64,000 nucleotides of DNA from Candidatus Latescibacterota bacterium (lineage in GTDB: Bacteria; Latescibacterota; UBA2968; UBA8231), in NCBI GenBank assembly GCA_965208105.1, contig OZ242318.1:2592001-2656000 (forward strand), read 5' to 3'. Made by a program: the position numbers and the translations under genes. Positions 38,836 through 48,928 of this stretch are shown piece by piece; the first letter of the stretch is position 1, and each line of letters starts with the position of its first letter. The notes beneath the pieces are model-generated. The model saw nothing but the letters and a program-made list of their open reading frames with translations. It was not told where the DNA came from and searched no databases.

Positions 38836-39561
38836 TCATTCGTCCTCGACCACATGCCTGTTCATCTGTTGGACCAGGGGTGGCATCCGGTCCCGCACGC
38901 TGCGCTTCATCAAATGCCAATCACCGGCCCCGGGGTCCATCCACGACGCGTAATACGTAACTCCCACCCCCACGCGGTGCTTGTCCGCGGTGACATTGGC
39001 CCCGCCGCCATGCCAGATAGAGCCGTGAAAAATCACGGCGGACCCCGCCGGCCCCTCGGCGGCAACCAGGTGTTTGTAATCCACCCCGGCTCGAGGCACT
39101 CGGCGCGAATGGTGGCTGAAGGGCATCAGCCTGGTCGCGCCGTTCTCGAAGGTGAAGTCGGTCATCATCCACATACTGTTGACGATGAAACAGGCGTCCG
39201 GTACCGGCAGGCCGGATTGGGAGAACCAGCCTATGGGCACATCTGCGTGGAGCTTCGGCTCTTTTGCGCCCGGCTTGATCCAGATGGCGCCGACTGAACC
39301 GCCCAACTGAAACTGCGGTCCGAGCATATGCTCCGCCAGCTCCAGGTAGACCGGGTTGGTGACGAGCGGAACGAAGGTGTCCTGGTCATCGATATTCAAC
39401 AGGCCTTGCTGACCCTGGTTCAGTTGATTCGCACTCGGTTGCCGGTTCAAAATTTCCATCACCCGTTTTGCCATGCGGTCTGCTTCATCGGTGGGAATGA
39501 GGTTGGGTATGATGACGAAGCCATATTCTTCCAGCTCGATCTTCAACTGCTCGACGTCCAT
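38836..39561 (-). CDS. Phytanoyl-CoA dioxygenase (PhyH) family Fe(II)/2OG oxygenase
   Basis: EYGFVII, LHAD (HxD), DFT.ENGAT...P.SH, WHGGGAN, R. Confidence 0.9.
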   Translation of the reverse strand: MDVEQLKIELEEYGFVIIPNLIPTDEADRMAKRVMEILNRQPSANQLNQGQQGLLNIDDQDTFVPLVTNPVYLELAEHMLGPQFQLGGSVGAIWIKPGAKEPKLHADVPIGWFSQSGLPVPDACFIVNSMWMMTDFTFENGATRLMPFSHHSRRVPRAGVDYKHLVAAEGPAGSAVIFHGSIWHGGGANVTADKHRVGVGVTYYASWMDPGAGDWHLMKRSVRDRMPPLVQQMNRHVVEDE

Positions 39562-39590
39562 ACCTTCCTCCTTTCCAAGATACAAGGTCT

Positions 39591-39754
39591 AGTGTCCCGT
39601 CGCAGAGATAGGTTGACGCAATTGGGCCGCCGAGGCGCCAGGCTCACAAGGCGCCTGAGCAAGCCGTACCAGTGGTGTACGGCGAGTGAAGGCAACGCCG
39701 TGAGCCGGGATGGATCGGCGGAATAATGACGACATATTTCTGCCACGGGACACT
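39591..39754. mobile_element. 164-bp MITE-like hairpin element (copy B); its right CTAG is split by the IS110 element
   Basis: TIRs 39591-39610 and 39735-39754 match 18/20; inner stems GGCTCAC/GTGAGCC and GCCGTAC/GTACGGC; left CTAG at 39589-39592. Confidence 0.8.
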
Positions 39755-39825
39755 GATATGTATTGACGGTTGTCAACCCCCTCCGGGGTGGTCGTTTCGG
39801 GTGTTATCTTTGCATGAGTTTGTTC

Positions 39826-39994
39826 GGGAACAGAAGGGACGCTGTAGCGACGGTTGATCCGACTGATATTCGCGGGTTGGTTACCGCCTGTCCTGGGTGC
39901 GTCGCGGAGCGGCCTCAATCTAGAGTCGAGGGTCAGCCTGATAGGCGCCTCATAGTGTCTTCGAGGATTCTCCTGACCGGTCCCTTCTGTCCCG
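39826..39994 (-). ncRNA. Putative bridge RNA / seekRNA of the IS110 element
   Basis: 11-bp closing stem (39830-39840 / 39980-39990) encloses two stem-loops with large internal loops; loop segments GACACUA and AUAUCAG equal the reconstituted target and the element junction. Confidence 0.75.
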
Positions 39995-40047
39995 TTTCGA
40001 TTTACATGAGCAAAGGTCCTATGCCGGCTTCTGAGACGATGAGCTTA

Positions 40048-41187
40048 TCAGGCGGCGATCCGAGGCCTCCTGGCCACGAGGCGGCCGGGGCGTTTCTGCT
40101 CCCAGGCGATGGCCCAGATGAAACCCAAAAGCTCCCGCGCGATCGCGCAGCACACCTTGTTCTTCGGCATCCCTCGCCCACTCAGCCGTCGATAGCGTCC
40201 ACACAGGCGTTTCTGTGCCTTCCAGGCGATGGCCTGTATGGGGGGTGCGGTCTGTTCGGCGCGTCGTTGCAAGGCGGCCGTCTTGCGGGCGGGAAAGCGA
40301 TAGCACCAGGCCGCTTCCACCAGCACGCGCCGCACGTGGGCGTTGCCCGCCTTGGTGATCGCCCCTCGCTTTTGGCGGGAGCCGCTGGAATGCTCGCTGG
40401 GGACCAGACCGACGAAGGCCATCAGTTGGCGCGGCGAGTCAAAGCGGGTGAGGTCCCCCAACTCGGCCAGGGTCGTAACCGCGGTGAGCGTGTCTACCCC
40501 GCGCAGCGCCCTCATAGCCCGCGTCTCCCCTTCCAAAGACCATCCCTCCAGCGCCTGCTGCAGGGCCTGGTCCAACCCCTGGATCCGACCTTGGGCTTCC
40601 TGTACCGCGTCCACGTATTCCTGAAAGACGATCTGCTGGGCCGGATGATCGAAGCGCTGGGTCTGCAGCCAGCGAAAGTGGGCTTGGGTCCAGCGACTGC
40701 GCCCGGAGTAGATCCGGCCGTGGCGCTGCAAGAAGCTGTTCAGCCGCTGGCGCACGCGGCGCTCGGCGTGCTTGAAGTCTTCCCGGCAGCGCTCCAGATC
40801 GCGCATCGCCTCCTGCGCTTCGTCGGGCACCCACACGGGGGTCAACTCGCCGTGTTGGAAAAGCCGCACCAGAGACACAGCATCGCGGCGGTCGGTCTTG
40901 ATGCGGTCGCCCGGCCGACGCGGGATCAGCGAGGGCGCCACCACCGTGCAGGCGTGCCCCAGGGCTGTGAGCTGACGGTAGACGCCGTAGCCGCAGGGTC
41001 CGGCCTCGTAGCAAAACCGCAACGAGGTCCCACCACGGGCCAGTTGGCCCGCCAGCTTGGACAACGCGGCGCCCGTAGACGGTATCGTTCCATACAGGTC
41101 TGGCCCTTTTCGGCCTTCACCGGCCAGGGCGACGGTGATCGAATCTTTATGTATGTCCAAGGCGACGAATTTCGTAGATTTACGCAT
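40048..41187 (-). CDS. IS110-family transposase/recombinase
   Basis: RuvC-like DEDD residues (ALDIHK, CYEAGPCG, KTDRRDA); C-terminal GLVPSEHSSG with catalytic Ser, ITKAGN, AIAREL. Confidence 0.95.
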   Translation of the reverse strand: MRKSTKFVALDIHKDSITVALAGEGRKGPDLYGTIPSTGAALSKLAGQLARGGTSLRFCYEAGPCGYGVYRQLTALGHACTVVAPSLIPRRPGDRIKTDRRDAVSLVRLFQHGELTPVWVPDEAQEAMRDLERCREDFKHAERRVRQRLNSFLQRHGRIYSGRSRWTQAHFRWLQTQRFDHPAQQIVFQEYVDAVQEAQGRIQGLDQALQQALEGWSLEGETRAMRALRGVDTLTAVTTLAELGDLTRFDSPRQLMAFVGLVPSEHSSGSRQKRGAITKAGNAHVRRVLVEAAWCYRFPARKTAALQRRAEQTAPPIQAIAWKAQKRLCGRYRRLSGRGMPKNKVCCAIARELLGFIWAIAWEQKRPGRLVARRPRIAA

Positions 41188-41305
41188 GGCCTCCTCCTTC
41201 TCGCTGGGGATAGGTCTTTGGGTGAACTCCGTTTTCCCAAAGATAACCCCCGACAACCGAGTCGGAGGAGGTCTTTCATATCTCCGTCAATACATAAGGT
41301 CTAGG

Positions 41306-41779
41306 TCAATGTTTGGTTGATCTGGGTGTTATCCGATTGTCAAGTCCGGATTTGTGAAACAACGCCATCGCCCTAACTATCACTTCCAAATGTTTATCCT
41401 CCATTTGGTCCAATAGCCCAATAATCCGCTGTCGGCCCAAGCGCCAGAATTGTTCCAGCTTCTCTCTTCCTTTGTGCGTGAGTTGGCAGACTACGACTCT
41501 GCGGTCATGTTCATCCGATACGCGCTCCACAAGCTCTTGTCTTACCAGGCGGTCTACAGTGCTAGTCGTAGCCGAGAAAGTACCGCCCAGGTATCTGGAT
41601 ACAGTGCCCATTCGCATGGGCCCCAATTGTTCCAAAATTACCATAGTTTTTATTTGAGGAACGGTCATGTCGAGGCCAGGCCAATTTTCCAGATGGCCGC
41701 TGTACATCCATCGGCACATATTTTCCGCCTCATTTGCAAGCCGCTCGATTATTTCCTTCCGGTATTTACCTTGCATCAA
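41306..41779 (-). CDS. MarR-family transcriptional regulator
   Basis: MTVPQIK, T..VDRLV...LVER..D..DRRVV.CQLT.KG. Confidence 0.88.
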   Translation of the reverse strand: MMQGKYRKEIIERLANEAENMCRWMYSGHLENWPGLDMTVPQIKTMVILEQLGPMRMGTVSRYLGGTFSATTSTVDRLVRQELVERVSDEHDRRVVVCQLTHKGREKLEQFWRLGRQRIIGLLDQMEDKHLEVIVRAMALFHKSGLDNRITPRSTKH

Positions 41780-41840
41780 CTCCCTTCCTTAGAGGACAGT
41801 TTGCGATGATTATCATTTTTGATTTACTCTGTGCCTTCAA

Positions 41841-42023
41841 GCCCAGGTCAAAGCCTTTTATGACAAGCTCATCACCGCCGGCAAAAGCCGATGCAGGCCA
41901 TTGTCGCCGTGATGCGAAAGCTGTTGCACGCTATCGGGGGAGTATGGAACTGCAACCAGGATTTCGACGGCCGGAAATTTCACAGAATGGCCGCATAGTC
42001 CCCTTACCTATTAGAGAGTATCT
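41841..42023 (+). pseudogene. Second IS110-family transposase C-terminal remnant with right end
   Basis: VKAFYDKLI.AGK / PMQAIVAVMRKLLHAI.GVW...QDFDG.KF..MAA* (frameshifted), followed by GAGAGTATCT. Confidence 0.7.
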
Positions 42024-42319
42024 TAAACAAGCCCAGGTATGAGGTAAGAGGGAAAGGTCGGTTAGAGGCCATATACGGCCTCACAGCGCTTTGGCCTACC
42101 GGCCTCCAGCGCCTGAAGCCGTCCTGCCCCCTCCCTTACATCGACATCAATCCGCGCAAATATACGACTCGAAACCGACCATGATGTACCAGCAGCTTCG
42201 AGTCGTTAATTTTATGCTACCCTTGCCGCGCCCTGACAACCCGGGCACTCCTCTAAAATTTATGAATTTAGACCTTATCCGAAGTGAAGAATTACCTCTA
42301 TCTGCGACTGTCTCCTGAG

Positions 42320-42364
42320 CAGCTTGGTGATTATCTGCTCGGTCGTACATCGTTTTCTGGCCAT
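42320..42364 (-). pseudogene. IS3-family (IS407-like) OrfA N-terminal remnant
   Basis: GGAGG RBS followed by MARKRCTTEQIITKL, then similarity stops. Confidence 0.6.
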
Positions 42365-42424
42365 TCTGCCTCCCTGGCCATCCTGTCTCCCTATTGAAGT
42401 CCAATCTATAACCATCTTATCTTC

Positions 42425-47676: not shown

Positions 47677-47932
47677 TCGGCCTCGCCAAGTGGCCGGAAC
47701 CCGCCAGGCGGTTATGGAGTAGAATTGCGGCGGCTGCGGCACACCAGTGAAGAGCGGGCGGCCGCAGCCTGTCGCCGCGCGCGCAAGCAAGCCTGCGAAC
47801 GAGGACGCTGAAGCGCGCGGCTCGCCAGGCGACTGAGCTGGTCGTGCGGGAGTGCAGTGCGAGAGCGGGCCACGCCGCCGAACTGGGGATGGAGCGGGCG
47901 GCCGCATTCACGCGGAATGGCGCCGGCGGGCA

Positions 47933-48928
47933 CTAGGCGTAGCGCACCGCCACCTTTATCACCTCGTCAGGCGCCTGATATATCTTGCCGTAGGTACGGG
48001 GCAACTCCTCCGGCGTCACGATGGAGTGGGGCAACCCGTGAGGCACCAGATCGCCGCGCGCGAAGAACTCGGTCAGCGCGGCGAAGATCCGCTGATTGCT
48101 CCAGAACAGGTCGCGCTGGGGCGCGCTGCAGGCCCGCGCCGAGATGATGTTGATCTGGTTGAAGTGGAACTCCGCGCCCAGGTCCAGGCCTTTGGACTCG
48201 CCCGTATAGAACGCCAGCGGCACCACGTTTCCGGCGTAGCGGGCGGCCTGGATCGCCTGGTCGAGGGCGCCGTAGTGGCCGCTGGCCTCGATCGCCACGT
48301 CCGCACCGTCGGCGAACCATTGGCGCGACGCCATGGCGAAATCCCCCACTTCCCCCGGGTCCACCGCCACCACCTCCACCGCCCCCGACAGGCGCGCCAG
48401 CTGCACGCTCAGAAGCCCGATGGCGCCCATTCCGAAGACGATCACCTTCTCGCCCACGCGCACATTGCCGTCCCGCACCGCGGCCATGGCGAAGCTGGCC
48501 GGGTCCATGCAGCAGGCCGCCTCCGGGGTAAACCCGGAGACCAGCTTCTCGAACTGCGCTCCCTGGTGCACGGTCTGAAAACCACCGTATCCCCACACCC
48601 GGTCACCCTCCTTGAGGTCCTTGACCTGAGCGCCCACCGCCATCACCGTACCCACCGTTGTATTGCCGCATCCGGCCCAGGCGGCCGGGTCGTAATTCCT
48701 TTGCCGGCTGCGGTCGAACACCTTCTCTTCCCTCAGATAAGGGGTGGTGGAATAAATCGCCTTGCCGAGAAACTGCGACATCTCGGTACCGTGCTTGGCC
48801 GCGGTAAGCTCGCTTTTGACCCTCACCTGCTCCGGTCCCAGGGGATCCAGGGAGCAGGGCTCCCAGCGCGGCTTGAATTCGTTGTTGCACACCAGCCTCT
48901 TCAACTCGACGCCATCTATTTCCGCCAT
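47933..48928 (-). CDS. Medium-chain dehydrogenase (zinc-binding ADH family, lacking Zn-Cys ligands)
   Basis: KHGTE, GroES-like VG.V.AVG..V.....GDRV, FGMGAIG, GADVAIEASG. Confidence 0.8.
   Translation of the reverse strand: MAEIDGVELKRLVCNNEFKPRWEPCSLDPLGPEQVRVKSELTAAKHGTEMSQFLGKAIYSTTPYLREEKVFDRSRQRNYDPAAWAGCGNTTVGTVMAVGAQVKDLKEGDRVWGYGGFQTVHQGAQFEKLVSGFTPEAACCMDPASFAMAAVRDGNVRVGEKVIVFGMGAIGLLSVQLARLSGAVEVVAVDPGEVGDFAMASRQWFADGADVAIEASGHYGALDQAIQAARYAGNVVPLAFYTGESKGLDLGAEFHFNQINIISARACSAPQRDLFWSNQRIFAALTEFFARGDLVPHGLPHSIVTPEELPRTYGKIYQAPDEVIKVAVRYA

Follow-up and report, generated by a model that had tools for sequence, protein, structure and literature searches.

A probable RNA-guided IS1111-group insertion sequence at the tips of a miniature transposable element family in a Candidatus Latescibacterota bacterium

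We analysed a stretch of 64,000 nucleotides from a Candidatus Latescibacterota bacterium (assembly GCA_965208105.1, contig OZ242318.1, positions 2592001-2656000; hereafter the window), whose genome is a single contig of 4.85 Mb. Within the window, an IS1111-type insertion sequence (IS) sits at the tip of a miniature transposable element with inverted repeats (MITE), between the genes for a MarR-family regulator and a PhyH-family dioxygenase. Our best explanation, to which we assign a probability of about 0.9 as a whole, is that this is an RNA-guided IS1111-group element that targets MITE tips and that is active or was active until recently. The explanation is carried by the anatomy of the element, the flanks of its genomic copies, an allele that lacks the IS, and the identity and covariation between a predicted guide RNA and its targets.

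An insertion sequence in the terminal CTAG of a MITE

Read directly from the sequence, the left junction of the IS is CACGGGACACT^GATATG (between 39754 and 39755; ^ marks the junction or insertion point throughout) and the right junction is AAGGTCT^AGGTCAATG (between 41302 and 41303). The insertion point lies between the T and the A of the terminal CTAG of a 162-bp MITE. Excising 39755-41302 joins CT to AG and gives a CTAG at the right end of the MITE that mirrors the one at its left end, and the IS thus lies exactly where the first-pass annotation of this DNA had placed it. As that annotation had also stated, the CT core is present at both IS junctions, which leaves a 2-nt ambiguity in the boundaries, so that 39753-41300 is equivalent. 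The boundaries are fixed in three ways, by an alignment of 12 genomic copies, by the end rule of IS1111 elements and by a skip of 1548 bp in contigs from two public sequencing runs (X6 and X7). The coordinates of all features are collected in Table 1.

Table 1. Features of the insertion sequence, the MITE and the adjoining genes (positions in the window)
Feature	Position	Strand	Remarks
IS1111-type insertion sequence	39755..41302	-	1548 bp, without target duplication; 12 genomic copies, 95.3-100% identical
Transposase, 379 aa, DEDD RuvC-like and Transposase_20 domains	40048..41187	-	motif GLVPSEHSSG
Non-coding region downstream of the transposase gene, predicted bridge/seekRNA	39755..40047	-	293 nt
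Predicted target-binding loop (arm 1)	39913..39966	-	fold and covariation with flanks
Predicted donor-binding loop (arm 2)	39847..39905	-	outer stem with GC/AU covariation
Subterminal inverted repeat, transposase-proximal end	41284..41295		followed by 7-bp terminal extension, 41296-41302
Subterminal inverted repeat, non-coding end	39758..39769		preceded by 3-bp terminal extension, 39755-39757
CT half of split right-hand CTAG (core dinucleotide, left junction)	39753..39754
AG half of split CTAG (right junction)	41303..41304		marR stop codon next, 41306-41308
MITE copy, 162 bp from G to C	39592..39753		imperfect terminal inverted repeats of ~39 nt, 74% complementary
Left CTAG of MITE (C + TA + first G of MITE)	39589..39592		most of 91 copies CTAG-bounded on both sides
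MarR-family regulator gene	41306..41779	-	stop codon 2 nt from insertion point
PhyH-family dioxygenase gene	38836..39561	-	likely ATG at 39561, 30 nt from MITE

The architecture of the element is that of the IS1111 group. A perfect inverted repeat lies inside both IS ends (39757-39769 and 41284-41296; 13 nt, 100% complementary) and counts 12 bp under the IS1111 rule, which, as set out by Siddiquee et al. (2024; PMC11187229), requires the subterminal repeats to measure 11-13 bp and to carry extensions of 7 bp and 3 bp; both extensions are found here. The non-coding sequence amounts to 293 nt downstream of the transposase gene against 115 nt upstream, as in the IS1111 layout with its long downstream non-coding region described in PMC11187229 and PMC11208160. 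The transposase matches PF01548 (DEDD_Tnp_IS110; 49.2 bits against a cut-off of 29), PF02371 (Transposase_20; 79.9 bits) and the NCBIfam equivalog model NF033542, named IS110 family RNA-guided transposase (263.6 bits, where 140 is the cut-off), and the C-terminal motif G(L)xPxxxxS/T-G of the IS110 family is present within Transposase_20. As is typical of that family, insertion is specific for site and orientation and proceeds without target duplication, given that all 12 copies sit at CT^AG and the empty allele differs by 1548 bp. As read from its architecture and guide logic, the element is an IS1111-group member of the IS110 family and not of the IS621-like IS110 group, since the predicted guide RNA region lies downstream of the transposase gene.

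A blastn search of the genome with the IS retrieved 11 copies over positions 1-1548, a twelfth that has lost 120 bp internally, and three small fragments, and the 379-aa frame is intact in 10 of the 12 copies. Ten of the 12 are inserted at the same nucleotide and in the same orientation of MITE termini, seven at one end of the MITE and three at the other. In these ten copies the non-coding IS end adjoins a MITE terminus that closes on TCTGCGACGGGACACT^, and the flank on that side reads GGGACACT^; the opposite flank begins with ^AG in all 12 and is otherwise unrelated from copy to copy. This is the pattern that the first-pass annotation had predicted for most copies. The two copies outside the MITE lie at ACAACACT^AG and CGACCACT^AG, both of which keep (A/C)CACT^AG. 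With about 203 MITE termini set against 2 x 4.85 Mb oriented positions, the binomial probability that at least 10 of 12 copies would fall on MITE tips by chance is ~1e-45. The MITE copies that adjoin the IS differ in sequence and the outer flanks are unique, so the insertions are separate.

One of the two copies outside the MITE, at C1:3964227-3966518, adjoins a truncated copy of an IS630-family element. Intact copies of that element continue otherwise after GCGACCACT, not with AG, which places the IS at a breakpoint; this may be a rearrangement made by the recombinase.

This stretch is present in 24 public runs (contigs only, from sponge, coral-reef and marine metagenomes and coded organisms), and empty and polymorphic alleles were sought in four of them (X5, X6, X7 and X16), aligned on 39300-41700. 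The empty marR-MITE-phyH allele, which the first-pass annotation had proposed to look for, is present in two of the four. A contig from X7 joins 39752 to 41301 and skips 1548 positions, with two letters that fit either side; its two arms, 52 nt towards the MITE and 215 nt towards marR, show no differences. A contig from X6 shows the identical joint with just 23 nt on the MITE side. Because the empty allele lacks exactly 1548 bp, the insertion involved no target duplication. In addition, a 1769-nt contig from X5 runs from the IS into 30 letters that here follow an unoccupied MITE end at 3736052, and if this contig is not chimeric, that MITE site would be occupied in another population. Contigs from X5, labelled as a sponge metagenome, also match the phyH side (39300-39563) and the marR side (41560-41700) without differences; the organism is probably a marine invertebrate-associated bacterium.

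The target itself is short, non-coding (no open reading frame was attributed to it) and multicopy, with terminal inverted repeats and a flanking duplication, as expected of a MITE. A blastn search with it gave 143 matches in the genome, 91 of them near-full copies, and a 20-nt inverted-repeat probe allowing at most 4 substitutions found 203 MITE ends, which include 83 pairs at a spacing of 161-163 bp. Most copies keep both the outer C and the outer G, giving a CTAG on both sides. IS630 elements insert with duplication of TA. Insertion of the MITE into CTAG with TA duplication, in the IS630 manner, fits these boundaries, a duplication of all four bases of CTAG being the alternative. The tetranucleotide is tenfold under-represented in the genome (1649 observed against ~17,000 expected). 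Of the 87 unoccupied GACACTAG sites, 75 are MITE tips (GGGACACTAG), that is, about 86% of the perfect targets in the genome.

Several other repeats share the CTAG boundaries. A separate 1162-bp IS630-family element with a DDE_3 domain, present in 9 copies, is CTAG-bounded like the MITE and has other terminal inverted repeats. One example lies at C1:1133588-1134749 (genome G000, outside the window), and in this and the eight further copies the reading frames are apparently split. Two of the nine (392927 and 756789) themselves occupy the terminal CTAG of copies of the first MITE, whose tips thus collect two kinds of IS. A genome-wide probe search for an autonomous parent found no pair of the MITE repeats 700-3500 bp apart that encloses a transposase. 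A second MITE family of ~16 copies (~167 bp; in the window at 47781-47936, elsewhere for example at C1:1464296-1464467), also CTAG-bounded, has other inverted repeats, starting with CTAGTGCCTGCTTGCG, and shares the core of the first family; the central 100 bp common to both are ~84% identical, which suggests that MITE ends may have been exchanged on a common core. The second family ends in GGCACT^AG, one mismatch away from the guide described below, and hosts none of the 12 IS copies; the ends of the nine IS630-family copies host no IS1111-type copy either. Finally, the MITE end at C1:69766 adjoins the apparent end of a tRNA gene and is followed by GAT instead of AG, these being the first three letters of the IS on that strand, which may be either a coincidence or a footprint.

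A predicted guide RNA and its covariation with targets

The minus-strand RNA of the non-coding region is predicted to form a long stem around two arms, and each arm carries an internal loop. In arm 1, an outer stem of CCUCGA with UUGAGG (39961-39966 with 39913-39918) is followed by two guide strands, AGACACUA on the 5' side (39953-39960) and ACUCUAGA on the 3' side (39919-39926), with an inner hairpin between them. The 5' strand, which is kept in all 12 IS copies, has the same sequence as GACACT^A on the target strand running into the MITE tip and would therefore pair with the transposase-sense strand; the 3' strand (CUCUAG) equals YCT^AG of the transposase-sense strand. The top-strand complement hence lies 5' of the bottom-strand complement and the two overlap at the insertion point, as in IS1111 elements, provided that 'top' in PMC11187229 denotes the transposase-sense strand. 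At all 10 occupied MITE sites AG is followed by a purine, which holds for 38 of the 75 free GGGACACTAG sites (Fisher P = 0.002); such a preference would be the outcome if the U of CUCUAG paired with A or wobbled with G. In arm 2, the 3' strand of the predicted donor loop, AUAUCAG (39863-39869), is identical to the IS end ATATC followed by AG. We infer that the RNA would be made and bound by the transposase. Another candidate guide, an 8-nt match of ACGGGACA between the non-coding region and the MITE repeat, was rejected, as it is part of the long stem and is also kept by relatives whose targets are unrelated.

To compare guides with targets across the clade, we used 80 loci retrieved from the GTDB representative genomes, with transposases 57-85% identical to that in the window and assembly labels including Latescibacterota, Gemmatimonadota, Gammaproteobacteria, Nitrospirota (Nitrospiraceae), Bryobacterales and Longimicrobiales, among others. 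The IS ends are conserved among these relatives (AGAC... to ...ATATC, then AG) and the flanks differ. After dropping loci without a recognisable end, without an anchor or with less than 60 nt of loop region, 58 IS/flank rows with 47 distinct RNAs remained, our own copy included. The longest exact match of an RNA to its own target was at least 6 nt in 39 of the 58 rows and at least 7 nt in 31, against 194 and 42, respectively, of 3188 comparisons with the targets of other elements.

An alignment of 46 of the 61 distinct RNA regions supported the fold. The 15 others (L004, L033, L039, L049, L050, L059, L060, L062, L065, L068, L069, L073, L074, L078 and L080) were left out as near-duplicates, for windows shifted by a misplaced anchor or for the size limit. 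RNAalifold recovered both outer stems and both hairpins, with compensatory changes in 9 of 21 pairs. Over the 20 kept pairs, 95.1% of the cells are paired, against 18-53% with slid partners, and compensatory cells number 82 against 9-26. Position by position, over 44 rows, columns 21-25 of the 5' strand correspond to flank positions +7 to +3, with self identities of 0.59, 0.81, 0.91, 0.84 and 0.93 against non-self identities of 0.29-0.37, and columns 67 and 68 of the 3' strand correspond to left-flank positions -3 and -2, with self identities of 0.68 and 0.90 against 0.26 and 0.31; the core T^AG is near-invariant. Judged by this per-position covariation, which matches the flanks of the 12 copies, the clade reads ~7 nt next to the non-coding end and just 2-3 nt on the opposite side. 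The 3' strand of the donor loop likewise tracks divergent IS ends (ATAAC in L010, ATACC in L022 and L075), with one mismatch each in L038 and L058. As in bridge/seekRNAs, the strands of the internal loops covary with both target and donor.

In the Latescibacterota assembly G001, a fragment of a close relative (L095) abuts the same MITE end; the genome of locus L004 holds this fragment. A full relative in G001 (L087) has the guide GCGCACUA and the flank AGTGTGCC, and its guide and flank differ from our own pair at the same position. Four loci in one Longimicrobiales assembly (L052, L053, L055 and L057) have identical flanks (GGAACGGGTA^ and ^AGGGCAAACGG) and a 10-nt guide match; their target is the interior of a repeat, not a CTAG tip. 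The proposal of the first-pass annotation that the element is programmed against MITE termini is thus supported by the flanks of the copies, by the empty allele and by a guide loop that matches GACACT^A and YCT^AG and covaries with the flanks in relatives.

Proposed mechanism and alternatives

In the mechanism that we propose, the DEDD recombinase would be guided by a bridge/seekRNA from the 293-nt region downstream of its gene. The 5' strand of the target loop would pair with some 7 nt of what becomes the flank beside the non-coding end, comprising AG and the first 4-5 nt of the MITE inverted repeat, the 3' strand would pair with YCT^AG on the other side, and the second loop would read the joined IS ends. 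The resulting target of 8-10 bp, (R)GACACT^AG(R), would be created when a MITE inserts into CTAG, which would explain why MITE tips make up such a large share of the perfect targets. The IS would then land between the T and the A of the terminal CTAG, in a fixed orientation and without duplication. Transposition presumably proceeds via a circle, and MITE tips may be favoured since they are harmless.

A number of observations weigh against this reading. The exact guide match is short (7 nt and 5 nt, overlapping at the core), two older IS copies have AU instead of CU in the 3' guide strand, and the 5' strand of the donor loop, AGGACAG (39888-39894), corresponds to the other IS end with 2 mismatches. 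Among relatives, the exact match to the own target is shorter than 6 nt in 19 of the 58 rows, including L002, L003 and L004, and L004, the closest relative with the same guide, lies at a poorly matching ...AACACCT^AG. An Rfam scan of 39500-41500 with E up to 1 returned no family. No joint going back 1548 positions, as a circle junction would give, is present in the contigs of X5, X6, X7 and X16, which need not show one, and the RNA-library contigs (X16) lie over parts of the IS, 39943-40044 among them, in a way that is not specific and cannot show a transcript. Lastly, the transposase, which counts 379 aa when the first ATG that has a ribosome-binding site is taken as its start, is longer than the 330-350 aa given for IS1111 members in the account of PMC11187229. 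The transposases of the relatives match over ~360-375 residues, and the clade of 379-aa enzymes may sit outside the core IS1111 cluster.

Alternatively, the transposase protein might itself recognise the inverted repeat of the MITE or its DNA hairpin, the RNA match being coincidental. This would agree with the pre-2024 view of how the family targets repetitive extragenic palindromic (REP) sequences and inverted repeats, and with an exact match of just 7 nt. However, loop positions covary with the flanks in 44 relatives with unrelated targets, the two sites outside the MITE share with it only the first 4-5 nt of its repeat, and RNA guidance has been reported from experiments on elements of the IS1111 as well as the IS110 group (Siddiquee et al., 2024, PMC11187229; Durrant et al., 2024, PMC11208160). 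We therefore consider recognition by the protein very unlikely.

Insertion might also be weakly specific, for any CTAG or T^AG, and the enrichment at MITE tips might reflect the survival of harmless insertions. The 3' strand reads just 2-3 nt beyond the core, CTAG is so rare that MITE tips form a sizeable share of its sites, and copies of the IS630-family element sit in MITE-terminal CTAGs too. Against this stand some 1320 CTAG sites outside inverted-repeat ends, with just two of the 12 copies off MITE tips, both at CACT^AG, as well as the fixed orientation in 10 of 10 copies and the absence of copies from the CTAGs that bound the second MITE family and the nine IS630-family copies. Weak specificity is thus as improbable to us as recognition by the protein. 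Least probable of all, and largely refuted already, is a single origin of the MITE-IS association, with the pair copied afterwards by segmental duplication or moved as a composite by the MITE transposase: the IS copies share 95-100% identity, with the same kind of repeat beside each of the ten, but the adjoining MITE copies differ at several positions, both MITE ends are used, the outer flanks are unique on both sides, ~81 MITE copies have no IS, the empty allele lacks just the 1548 bp and keeps the MITE end, and no MITE inverted repeat follows past the far IS end.

Relatives, known systems and genomic neighbourhood

To see whether relatives of this element also adjoin transposon ends, the flanks of 63 loci with at least 300 nt of flanking sequence were analysed. 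The flank by the non-coding end begins an element bounded by inverted repeats at 14 of the 63 loci (L002 being doubtful), against a chance expectation of ~0.35 by our own estimate. The 13 credible elements end in CTAG or TTAG; twelve are 63-442 bp long, and the 1176-bp element at L001, which has HTH and DDE_3 domains, is a complete IS of the IS630 family whose repeat starts like that of the MITE. T^AG was found at 44 of 51 sites of relatives and CT^AG at 19 of 51. The matching target (CTAG and 12 nt) occurs 243 times in genome G007, in pairs ~153 bp apart, and 25 times in genome G004, with no occurrence of the reversed control in either. In keeping with their targets, the guides of the two genomes differ (AGCCUCCUA against GUGCUCCUA). 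In a reading that extends to the clade, the target loop would read T^AG and the first 5-6 nt of the inverted repeat of the host element, a junction that would arise only once an IS630/Tc1-like element has inserted. We give even odds to the proposition that a cross-phylum IS1111-like clade is specialised as second-order parasites of such TA-duplicating transposons, with the guide re-written to the locally abundant MITE family. Our literature search, which went mostly by search listings, found no description of IS110/IS1111 elements as specialists of IS630-type termini, although supplementary target logos may cover the clade. What may be new is that in other phyla, too, elements related to ours lie next to CTAG-bounded MITEs or an IS630-family element, and that the guide matches in each case.

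Repeat targeting by the IS110/IS1111 family is already well known and its mechanism has been described previously; REP sequences, for example, are reported as targets of ISPa11, IS621 and ISPpu9. In Coxiella burnetii, 20 of 21 copies of IS1111 were reported in the MITE QMITE2 (Wachter et al., 2018; PMC5896051). That case resembles ours in that the copies lie nearly all in one MITE family (10 of 12 here) and in that, by the published account, the MITE occurs both occupied and unoccupied by the IS, a sign that strains are polymorphic for the insertions. The Coxiella target is described there as a GTAG REP-like palindrome inside QMITE2, with 10-20 bp of MITE beyond the IS, whereas the target here is the junction of the MITE inverted repeat with the flanking TA-G, and the MITE body stays intact and CTAG-bounded in an IS630-like manner. 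Unlike in the Coxiella case, a guide RNA-target match has been worked out here, as a prediction from sequence.

The termini of other mobile elements serve as targets as well. IS4321 and IS5075 target the inverted repeats of Tn21, according to work in the reference list of PMC11208160. They share with our element the IS1111 grouping, the subterminal inverted repeats and the use of another transposon's terminal inverted repeat as a target that is specific and oriented. Their target lies within the 38-bp repeat of large Tn3-family plasmid transposons, whereas ours is the tip of a 162-bp chromosomal MITE with ~90 copies. ISEc21, of the IS110 group, is reported to target a conserved codon block in transposase genes of the IS3 family (PMC11187229), and is likewise an RNA-guided IS with another mobile element as its landing site; it breaks the transposase gene of its host element, whereas the insertion here lies outside the MITE body.

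As for the elements with described guide RNAs, ISEc11, ISKpn4, ISPst6 and ISPa11 resemble ours, in the account of PMC11187229, in the downstream non-coding region, the subterminal repeats of 11-13 bp with extensions of 7 bp and 3 bp, the top-strand complement 5' of the bottom-strand one with overlap at the insertion point, and the lack of duplication. They differ in their targets (a linear site, attC sites and REP sequences) and in their transposases of 330-350 aa against 379 aa; they were studied by experiment, the present element by its sequence. IS621 (Durrant et al., 2024; PMC11208160) also combines a DEDD recombinase with an RNA of two loops, for target and donor, and shares the CT core. 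As described there, it differs in having the RNA upstream of the gene and short subterminal repeats, and here, unlike in IS621, gene and RNA are inverted relative to the CT core. The similarity of the transposase to the IS621 protein (structures 8wt6 and related) is weak, at 27 bits and over the C-terminal domain only.

In the window, the MITE and the IS lie between the stop codon of marR and the start of phyH, all on the minus strand, and the IS adds 1.5 kb between these co-oriented genes. Upstream of marR, two adjoining frames on the plus strand (41836-41999) resemble by eye the C-terminal tail of a different, frameshifted IS110-family transposase (AIVAVMRKLLHAI); Pfam gave no match for 41836-41997, and the segment is not repeated in the genome. 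Segments 42069-42129 and 42319-42373 match places in the genome that are ~1.1 kb apart, against ~250 bp here, and from this spacing they may be the two ends of another IS, reduced to a deletion derivative.

The first-pass annotation had further regarded the MITE as a safe landing site, which would be an evolutionary rationale for the targeting. In a crude open-frame test, in which the MITE was removed and each site was scored for a spanning frame with 60 codons or more on each side, 36 of 81 MITE sites had such a frame, compared with 2374 of 3000 random positions; the test did not separate MITE sites from other CTAG sites (640 of 1320, P = 0.49).

The known picture of the family's mechanism is unchanged by this element, which is a clean natural case in which the bridge/seekRNA guide, the genomic target class and the empty allele are all readable from sequence. 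The ~47 naturally re-programmed guides of its relatives show which positions the clade reads, and the asymmetric reading rule, together with the guide-target pairs, could help engineers of IS1111-type recombinases. Such layered parasitism, with an IS seated on a MITE tip, is relevant to the question of how mobile elements reach harmless sites.

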